From the sequence record OR339795: a stretch of 64,000 nt of DNA; one strand, 5' to 3'. The notes under the pieces are model-generated. The model was not told the origin of the DNA, searched no databases, and was given only the letters and a program-made list of their open reading frames with translations. Source of the stretch: Escherichia phage phi456. Position numbers and translations under genes: made by a program. Shown in pieces: positions 26,534 to 27,598 of this stretch (position 1 is the first letter of the stretch; each line of letters starts with the position of its first letter).

Positions 26534-27073
26534 CTACCACCAACTGCTAGCTTTCTTCTCTCTAGCTTTTCCTTCGCTTTGCAGTAAATCTTTACTTCCT
26601 GTAGAAATATTTCTATTTGCATCAGCCTCAGACTGAATTACATCTGTCTTAGCTGCTCTCTCCTTCAACTCCTGCTCTATAAAATCGTTTTCTCGCTGGA
26701 CACGAGCCGCTTTTGCTTGCAGTTCGAGCTTCATGCTTTCGAGTTGCAGCTTGCGAAGCTCATCCTCATAAGCTTGATCTCGCTTCTTGTCATTTGCTAG
26801 CTCGGCTTCTCGTTTCGCTCTACGTTCATTTTCTGCAGCAACACGCTGTTTTTCGCGTGCAGCAGCGGCAGATGCTGCTTTTTCTCTTCTAATACGTTCA
26901 GCTTGTGCTTGTTGGCGAATAAGTTCTTTTCTGGCATCCTCAGCTTGCTGCTCTTTAGCTCGCCCTTCATTTTCCGCTTGAGCAATAGCAGCAATTTGAC
27001 TTTGCAACGAGTTAGCCAAGGCAGTGCCTACACTAAACGTAGAAAAGATTAGAAATAAAATAATTTTATTCAT
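26534..27073 (-). CDS. secreted protein with long charged single alpha-helix (Sim-like candidate)
   Basis: 179 aa; signal peptide ending ALA-NS, then about 120 aa of E/R/K/A-rich helix (EKAASAAAAREKQRVAAENERRAKREAE), C-terminal SSWW. Confidence 0.45.
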   Translation of the reverse strand: MNKIILFLIFSTFSVGTALANSLQSQIAAIAQAENEGRAKEQQAEDARKELIRQQAQAERIRREKAASAAAAREKQRVAAENERRAKREAELANDKKRDQAYEDELRKLQLESMKLELQAKAARVQRENDFIEQELKERAAKTDVIQSEADANRNISTGSKDLLQSEGKAREKKASSWW

Positions 27074-27076
27074 AAA

Positions 27077-27598
27077 TTATTTCTTTTCTGGACAAGTAGC
27101 ATTTGGCTGAATTCGAGTTTCATTATCTTTAGTTGAAATAAGCACAGCAAGCCCCGTTGTAAACTGGCATGCTTTACCAACTTGAGTTGAAGTGAACACC
27201 TTAGTTCCTTCTTTATAAGTCAGTGAAACACCTTCAACAATTGTTTTATCACTAACCAAAGAACCAGCCGCTGCACCAAGAGCCGCACCACCAGTACCGC
27301 CAGCTACAGCACCCAGTGTCGATGTGCCTTTAACATTATAACCGGCAACGCCCCCAGCAACAGCTCCCAGTACCGCACCAAATGTCTGTGCCGCTTCTTT
27401 ATTAGCTTTATTATCAACTTTCACTTTAGCTGGAAGCACAGAGATAATATTGACTGTCTTTGTTTCCTGCTTCGAATTCAATTGAGCGGTATCATAAACA
27501 TCGGCAGCATAATCAGCACCGCTAGATTGACACCCAGAAAGAAGAATTGCAGATACAACAAGAGCGCATAAAGTATACTTTTTAGACATAAGAATCAT
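27077..27598 (-). CDS. outer-membrane lipoprotein with glycine-zipper motifs
   Basis: 173 aa; lipobox LLSGC; GAVLGAVAGGVAG...GAVAGGTGGAALGAAAGS glycine zipper. Confidence 0.5.
   Translation of the reverse strand: MILMSKKYTLCALVVSAILLSGCQSSGADYAADVYDTAQLNSKQETKTVNIISVLPAKVKVDNKANKEAAQTFGAVLGAVAGGVAGYNVKGTSTLGAVAGGTGGAALGAAAGSLVSDKTIVEGVSLTYKEGTKVFTSTQVGKACQFTTGLAVLISTKDNETRIQPNATCPEKK

Follow-up and report, generated by a model that had tools for sequence, protein, structure and literature searches.

The closest described relatives of the gene pair that we analyzed here, which encodes a lipoprotein and a DUF5384 protein in a 64,000-nucleotide stretch of Escherichia phage phi456 (OR339795; hereafter the window, in whose positions all coordinates are given), are the chromosomal genes yfgH and yfgI of E. 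coli. YfgH fractionates with the outer membrane and has been shown experimentally to stabilize it; its expression is induced on knock-down of lpxC, lptD or bamA, and it is needed under sodium dodecyl sulfate/EDTA and lptD depletion. It also binds many outer-membrane proteins, clsA mutations act as suppressors of the yfgH deletion, and AlphaFold 3 predicts SlyB-like YfgH rings (bioRxiv 10.64898/2025.12.22.696046). Earlier work linked yfgH with lptD and with vancomycin sensitivity (Babu et al. 2011; PMC3219608), and sensitivity to nalidixic acid has been reported for a yfgI mutant (PMC3536626). In Salmonella Typhi, the orthologous genes, srgIL, are regulated by SdiA, and orthologues are reported to be absent from S. 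Typhimurium (PMC11619404). Phage-borne copies are not mentioned in these yfgHI papers, and yfgI is not mentioned in the YfgH preprint.

Other described systems share the fold, the position or the lifestyle of the phi456 pair. SlyB (PDB 7ojf/7ojg) is a PhoPQ-regulated glycine-zipper lipoprotein that forms rings around outer-membrane proteins and lipid. TraT, the surface exclusion protein of F-like plasmids, is also an outer-membrane lipoprotein with a helical membrane segment and a beta domain; it forms a decameric ring, and provides a precedent for the co-option of a chromosomal outer-membrane ring lipoprotein for exclusion (PMC11733297). Cor of phages phi80 and N15 and Llp of phage T5 are small phage outer-membrane lipoproteins encoded near tail or receptor-binding genes; they bind FhuA as monomers. 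SimA, SimB and SimC, the superimmunity (superinfection-exclusion) proteins of phage P1, are exported products of non-essential genes on the lysogeny side, and sim is dispensable for lytic growth. The simABC genes form one of eight variable regions in P1-like phage-plasmids (PMC9603915).

We found that, by sequence, the phi456 pair and the host core operon yfgH-yfgI are paralogous over their full length. The lipoprotein gene (27077-27598, minus strand; an open reading frame [ORF] of 173 aa) is followed after 3 nt by the DUF5384 gene (26534-27073, minus strand; an ORF of 179 aa) in the same orientation. The lipoprotein is 67% identical to K-12 YfgH across 171 aa (E 6e-73), and the DUF5384 protein is 47% identical to K-12 YfgI across 179 aa. 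DNA searches of complete E. coli genomes gave a match at ~69% nucleotide identity, annotated as yfgH-yfgI, in 5420 of 5426 genomes; yfjS and yfjT, which had been considered as the K-12 homologues, were rejected on the same searches. In K-12, yfgH-yfgI adjoins guaA, with the gene order and spacing of the phage pair. All invariant residues are shared between the phage and host proteins, including the lipobox Cys and the Cys144/Cys169 pair. By contrast, the phage genes lie on a phage-plasmid, belong to a distinct mobile clade, and have a different upstream region that contains an FNR-type box; the phage hairpin tip has Lys/Arg where the core clade has Gly, and the phage DUF5384 protein differs from YfgI at 18 fixed positions and ends in WW rather than WF(N).

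Both genes and both protein families were already known. The two proteins are 100% identical to Upf50.5 (AAQ07514; the lipoprotein) and Upf50.0 (the DUF5384 protein) of phage P7, whose record describes an outer-membrane lipoprotein and a membrane protein, respectively, and notes that both are similar to E. coli K-12 proteins; the families are those of YfgH/SlyB-type lipoproteins and DUF5384/YfgI. Given the identity to annotated P7 proteins, the existence of hundreds of homologues (with E-values down to 1e-100), and a ratio of nonsynonymous to synonymous substitution rates (dN/dS) of 0.05-0.11 in comparisons with diverged mobile copies, both ORFs are real genes rather than chance ORFs. A second in-frame ATG at 27589, which is used by most NCBI gene models, gives a lipoprotein of 170 aa and is likely to be the true start. 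PHROG 1277 and the RefSeq re-annotations of P7, RCS47, SJ46 and TL-2011b (NC_050152.1, NC_042128.1, NC_031129.1 and NC_019445.1) label this lipoprotein "DNA methyltransferase", whereas the original GenBank entries have an outer-membrane lipoprotein. The methyltransferase label is evidently a propagated misannotation, which the present identification corrects.

The coupling of the two genes extends well beyond E. coli. In contigs representing one genome per species, 79 of 80 DUF5384 genes directly follow a same-strand gene for a YfgH-like lipoprotein. The loci come from Enterobacterales, Pasteurellaceae, Pseudomonas, Aeromonadales, Vibrionaceae and a few other groups, and the sole exception is a 336-bp contig. 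The same pairing was seen at all 45 other loci with enough sequence, and neighbor-joining trees of the two proteins are congruent. Hence, the two genes are an obligate unit across the Gammaproteobacteria. This strict coupling appears to be new with respect to the literature that we searched.

The lipoprotein has the features of an exported, lipidated protein, with a lipobox (LLSG-C23) followed by Gln at position +2; the Cys is invariant among 38 homologues. A Gly/Ala-rich helical hairpin spans residues ~64-113, modeled by AlphaFold 2 (AF2) as helices at 64-88 and 94-113 with strands on both sides, and the C-terminal beta domain contains two Cys residues, C144 and C169, that are invariant in the same 38 homologues. 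A profile of these homologues matched the solved SlyB chain 7ojf over its full length (residues 8-163; E 1.9e-9). Similarly, in a Foldseek search with the AF2 model, SlyB ranked first (E 6e-6) and was the sole significant PDB match, with TraT second (E 0.07). Single-sequence PDB searches with the pair yielded nothing meaningful, SlyB emerging only with the family profile; against the Pfam glycine-zipper models alone, the lipoprotein scores below their cut-offs. The profile, the Foldseek match and the model agree on a glycine-zipper hairpin within a beta domain, as in SlyB, and on this sequence evidence the lipoprotein is a YfgH-subfamily member of the SlyB/glycine-zipper 2TM family of outer-membrane lipoproteins. 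Although the two share a topology of lipid anchor, beta strand, glycine-zipper hairpin and beta domain, identity to SlyB is only ~25%, and SlyB lacks both a DUF5384 partner gene and the conserved Cys pair.

In the homologue alignment, the hairpin tip (P7 residues 88-93; window ~27320-27337) is the most variable part of the mature lipoprotein. The mobile clade has Lys or Arg at the tip (NVKGTS, NIKGTS, NVRGTS, NTKNGS), whereas the Escherichia/Citrobacter core clade has NVGSGS, with one member having NVGSRS.

The DUF5384 protein carries an N-terminal signal peptide with a predicted cleavage site at ALA|NS, and the AXA cleavage site is conserved throughout the family. Membership in DUF5384 is clear (Pfam PF17358; 147.8 bits against a cut-off of 25; E 3e-43). 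The mature protein has 158 aa, of which 41% are D, E, K or R and 19% are Ala, and AF2, run with a 36-sequence alignment, modeled residues 3-178 as a single continuous helix with a mean predicted local distance difference test (pLDDT) score of 88. Residues ~31-100 have almost no hydrophobic positions, and residues ~102-146 are heptad-like. The family alignment has the same organization, with a conserved N-terminal motif (SLQxQLxAVAQAExxG), a charged middle spacer that varies in length and has almost no hydrophobic residues, and a conserved C-terminal region of ~85 residues comprising a heptad-like segment and an aromatic end. If all 158 residues were helical, we estimate that the protein would reach ~23 nm, approximately the width of the periplasm. 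A profile search with DUF5384 found no solved structure. An NCBIfam search of the pair gave no usable match, and neither protein matched any family in PADLOC-DB v2 at E-values up to 1. An earlier, sequence-only reading of the window had described a glycine-zipper lipoprotein paired with a secreted, highly charged protein made of a single helix; the lipobox, hairpin and SlyB profile match confirm the former description, and the signal peptide, modeled helix and residue composition confirm the latter.

The window belongs to a P1-family member of the P7/RCS47 type: positions 25800-28500 have 98.8-99.2% identity to P7 and RCS47, and one E. coli plasmid matches them at 100%. In a blastn comparison with P1 (AF234172), homology stops at 26505 and restarts at 27882, such that a replaceable cassette of 1376 bp (26506-27881) takes the place of a 1513-bp P1 segment that encodes simA-simB-simC on the same strand as the pair. 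The left junction falls just beyond LPsit (26485-26504, minus strand; P7 and P1 annotations mapped with an offset of 24299), the late promoter for pmgC/tub, which lies outside the pair's own expression. The right junction coincides with the C1 repressor operator Op(c4), also called Op51 (27880-27896, plus strand), where the sequence tctgctctaataaattt was read directly and to which the P7 annotation also maps. To the right of the cassette are Op(c4), the c4 target sites, the c4 RNA (28078-28163; Rfam RF01695, 69.6 bits), icd and ant1/2; to the left are LPsit and pmgC/tub. The pair thus sits between LPsit/pmgC and Op(c4), divergent from c4-icd-ant, exactly as sim does in P1. Over the c4 a1/b1 target region there is also a sub-threshold Rfam match to isrK (27970-28051; 43.7 bits, with a gathering score of 50), which probably reflects the known kinship of P1-type c4/immI leaders with isrK-like prophage RNAs.

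Although it lies at the sim locus, on the same strand and between the same flanks (LPsit and Op(c4)), and its products are likewise exported, the pair differs from sim in the types of protein encoded. A blastp comparison with SimA, SimB and SimC gave a best match with E 0.07 over 30 residues; we therefore rejected the possibility that the two proteins are Sim homologues. The sequence-only reading had placed a co-oriented pair beside the C1 operator and c4, at the position of the P1 sim genes, and had allowed that it might be distinct from Sim; all of this is borne out. Its interpretation of the pair as candidates for superinfection exclusion is partly supported, and it had missed the P7 upf50.5/upf50.0 annotation, the paralogy to host yfgH-yfgI and the outer-membrane data for YfgH.

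The sim slot is polymorphic: at least four different cassettes can occupy it, and signal peptides are present on most of their products. The phi456 cassette is present in 166 PLSDB records at 80% or more of its length, and all 168 matching records are at least 99% identical to it; the full P1 sim cassette is present in 137 records. A third cassette, from phage vB_EcoM-Ro157c2YLVW (locus L004, 1000-2300), encodes secreted proteins of 215 and 158 aa and is found at full length in 81 PLSDB plasmids. A fourth, from pTX376-2 (L005, 4809-7066), encodes secreted proteins of 163 and 168 aa together with a 389-aa SH3-domain protein. The products of the third and fourth cassettes had no PADLOC match. 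That the phi456 cassette is one of several alleles found in the sim slot appears to be new, judging from the papers that our searches returned.

P1 SimA itself (53 aa; L002, 3490-3648) shares its residues 10-45, which start from an internal Met (MRKLLLPLLFMAGTVNAASSVKEICTDYTKYLGHVY), with the N-terminus of the first, longer secreted proteins of the third and fourth cassettes (215 aa, L004 1541-2188; 163 aa, L005 6575-7066). SimA thus looks like a truncated remnant of the gene for that longer secreted protein. Another P1-like element (L034) carries a diverged allele of the phi456 cassette, with 84% and 80% amino acid identity, and has an additional gene between the DUF5384 gene and pmgC (L034, 6856-8115). 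The 419-aa product combines a hydrophobic N-terminal segment with a DUF559/MTES_1575 restriction-endonuclease-like domain and has weak PADLOC matches to PDC-S37 and Hhe, and this gene may be defense cargo.

In both protein trees, the window copy groups with those of the P1-like element L034 and of an insertion sequence-rich E. coli island (L015). Sister copies lie at the end of a P2-like prophage near aspS (L012-L014), whose protein appears in 245 of the collection's blocks; in an IMG/VR contig (L035); and in a Salmonella prophage (L006), beside an ORF6N gene and tail-fibre assembly genes. This mobile clade is distinct from the core yfgHI clade of Escherichia and Citrobacter. A second mobile lineage adjoins the tail genes of a P2-like prophage at another chromosomal site (L009, L040), and a third is found on phage-plasmid-like contigs of ~100-115 kb from Salmonella and Enterobacter (L011, L008). 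Because the neighbor-joining trees lack bootstrap values, independent captures can be counted only approximately. Among copies of the mobile clade, the low dN/dS was accompanied by near saturation of synonymous sites, indicating that the genes have been kept by purifying selection and were not recently captured from E. coli. Consistent with this, we saw no frequent frameshifts or stop codons in natural copies, and both genes are intact in the 166 plasmids. Maintenance of separate yfgHI lineages by temperate phages appears not to have been reported in the literature we searched, which yielded no paper on phage-borne yfgHI, upf50.5 or DUF5384.

Copies of host yfgHI at prophage edges are a trap for counts of phage-borne copies. 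We excluded, as host yfgHI at a prophage boundary, most of 80 IMG/VR loci, which have 99-100% identity to K-12, and phage TL-2011b. Dozens of IMG/VR contigs (L041-L096) and TL-2011b (JQ011317/NC_019445, 41921-42436) end with host yfgH-yfgI; a common E. coli prophage therefore integrates beside yfgHI, and its predicted boundaries include the host genes. Separately, the 115-kb contig from Enterobacter hormaechei (L008) encodes a Tad2-like protein of the anti-Thoeris family (1237-1716), ~4.3 kb upstream of its distant yfgHI-like pair.

The region upstream of the pair (27599-27879, minus strand) is AT-rich, with 29-35% GC, and contains one weak sigma-70-like match at 27865-27837. A candidate regulatory site of the FNR/CRP-family type, TTGATATAAGTCAA, lies at 27663-27676 on the minus strand, ~84 nt upstream of the lipoprotein gene, with one mismatch to the FNR consensus TTGAT-N4-ATCAA. 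The window has six one-mismatch sites of this type against 3.3 expected, such that a single site is not significant. Nonetheless, we keep the box as a lead because the P1-like variant L034 has a perfect box, TTGATATACATCAA, at the equivalent position within poorly conserved upstream sequence, and each of the two boxes is followed by a TGnTA..TT element. No such box was found upstream of K-12 yfgH or of 85 other loci. The box hints, as a working hypothesis, at expression that depends on oxygen or on a CRP/FNR-family regulator. The same AT-rich region has a 15-nt direct repeat, CC[A/C]TCTGCATTATTT, at 27743-27757 and 27829-27843, 86 bp apart, and a second, 22-nt repeat pair with 73% identity at 27688 and 27764; these repeats could be due to chance or could be a protein-binding site.

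The pair is a temperate-phage copy of yfgH-yfgI, and we put at roughly 55% the probability that it is carried as a lysogeny-side accessory cassette (a moron) that provides a YfgH-type, envelope-protecting conversion function. The lipoprotein would be exported and lipidated at Cys23. It would then be sorted to the outer membrane, since the +2 residue is Gln and not Asp, as the +2 rule of Lol sorting predicts. The glycine-zipper hairpin would insert into the outer membrane while the beta domain, presumably disulfide-bonded, remains in the periplasm, and by analogy with SlyB and the YfgH models the lipoprotein may assemble as oligomeric rings around patches of lipid and outer-membrane proteins. 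The DUF5384 protein would be secreted to the periplasm as a helix of ~23 nm with conserved ends and a charged spacer of variable length, and would act with the lipoprotein, probably by docking on the ring from its periplasmic side. Expressed from the prophage, the module would harden or remodel the outer membrane of the lysogen, and so protect the host of the phage. We infer expression from the prophage because no late promoter lies upstream of the pair and the upstream region is AT-rich and moron-like; consistent with this, P7 and P1 annotations place the cassette on the lysogeny-side border of immI.

Several observations weigh against an envelope-protecting function. E. coli lysogens own chromosomal yfgHI, and simple dosage gives no obvious reason for a diverged second copy. 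The sim slot, and the tail-fibre-adjacent position of the prophage copies, are typical of exclusion genes and not of general fitness genes. Promoter and terminator scans of the upstream region performed no better than on shuffled sequence, and we claim no promoter. The AF2 model of the lipoprotein monomer is poor (pLDDT 55); we used it for the topology and the SlyB match only, and the sequence profile confirms SlyB independently. Lastly, nalidixic acid sensitivity is the sole reported phenotype for YfgI, and it leaves the role of YfgI unclarified.

Some of the same observations favor superinfection exclusion, in which the pair would be a functional analogue of Sim, with a ring and a periplasm-spanning helix that block receptor access or genome delivery by P1-like or unrelated phages. 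The cassette replaces simABC exactly in position and strand, in a slot that swaps at least four cassettes of mostly signal peptide-bearing products, one variant of which adds a DUF559 nuclease-like gene; and the pair recurs on several temperate-phage backbones, as a diverged, phage-specific lineage that exists despite the host's own copy. In P2-like and Salmonella prophages, the pair also lies at the prophage end next to tail-fibre genes, a location shared by the exclusion lipoprotein genes cor and llp. Cor and Llp have no homology to the lipoprotein, however, and no helical partner; the sole PHROG match to Cor (E 0.022) is confined to the signal peptide. An exclusion phenotype is known for sim but not for the phi456 pair, the pair has no sequence similarity to SimA, SimB or SimC, and PADLOC gave no match. 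Moreover, the P1 receptor is the lipopolysaccharide core rather than an outer-membrane protein, and classical heteroimmunity work showed that P1 and P7 plate on each other's lysogens; therefore, single-copy exclusion of P1-type phages must be weak, as it is for sim. We consider an exclusion function plausible, at odds well short of even; the proposal, drawn from position, has no more support than a plain envelope-strengthening conversion function. A more doubtful proposition is a general one: that temperate phages, including P1-like phages, P2-like and Salmonella prophages and SSU5-like phage-plasmids, co-opted YfgH-YfgI as a diverged lineage that serves as an envelope-level superinfection-exclusion or anti-phage barrier. 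The ring lipoprotein and the periplasm-spanning helix would then interfere with genome delivery or with receptor outer-membrane proteins, in parallel with the plasmid co-option of chromosomal TraT, and the sim slot would be a swap site for exclusion cassettes.

TraT is relevant both as a precedent for exclusion, being a weakly similar outer-membrane ring lipoprotein co-opted from chromosomes, and as a possible model for a host-interaction factor of the TraT/Bor/Iss type that confers serum or complement resistance or reduces conjugative entry. Like TraT, the phage pair stems from a chromosomal gene family that mobile elements have acquired repeatedly; precomputed PF05818 matches exist for many homologues, TraT ranked second in Foldseek, and the cassette is carried by E. 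coli and Salmonella of animal and human origin. Nevertheless, the lipoprotein's own match to PF05818 (E 7e-5; 23.1 bits against a cut-off of 31) covers only profile positions 74-160 of 214, and we rejected membership in the TraT family. The lipoprotein is also ~70 residues shorter than TraT (~245 aa), the ring domain of TraT is extracellular, TraT has no partner gene, and the significant structural and profile matches are to SlyB. Homologues are, in addition, common in insect-associated or environmental bacteria such as Xenorhabdus, Pantoea and Pseudomonas. We regard such a host-interaction role as unlikely. It is less likely again that the pair is a neutral hitch-hiker, that is, bacterial DNA acquired by illegitimate recombination that has no phage function. 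The low-GC upstream region and the location of the flanks in a known variable region of P1-like phage-plasmids (PMC9603915) fit with such an origin, but the low dN/dS between mobile copies with near-saturated synonymous change, the intact genes in 166 plasmids, and a lineage common to unrelated phage backbones do not; and with only 67% and 47% identity to the host copies, the pair is not a recent capture from E. coli. We give hardly any credence to a two-component spanin or lysis accessory, in which the lipoprotein and the helical protein would act at lysis to fuse or disrupt the envelope. The composition of the pair is superficially similar, and there is a faint PHROG match to an Rz-like spanin (E 0.038) in the signal peptide region only. 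By contrast, o-spanins are short and proline-rich, whereas the lipoprotein is a 150-residue SlyB-type protein, and in place of an N-terminal membrane anchor the helical protein bears a signal peptide with a cleavable AXA site. The lipoprotein gene also comes first, the pair lies outside any lysis cassette with no late promoter in front, and the orthologues are core chromosomal genes in many bacteria. We rejected an Rz/Rz1-type spanin on this anatomy, which effectively refutes it already.

The cassette is found in approximately a quarter of sequenced P1-like phage-plasmids (166 of ~629 PLSDB matches). In E. coli and Salmonella, these elements commonly carry resistance genes for extended-spectrum beta-lactamases and mcr-1. 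If the pair does harden the outer membrane, it would be a conversion trait that could alter the tolerance of lysogens to detergent, bile, antibiotics or serum, and conversion could reach S. Typhimurium, which reportedly lacks yfgHI. If instead the pair acts in exclusion, it would represent a new envelope-level mechanism, and would explain the polymorphism of the sim slot. Under either reading, the phage copies provide a natural handle on YfgI and DUF5384, and an added argument that YfgH and YfgI act together.

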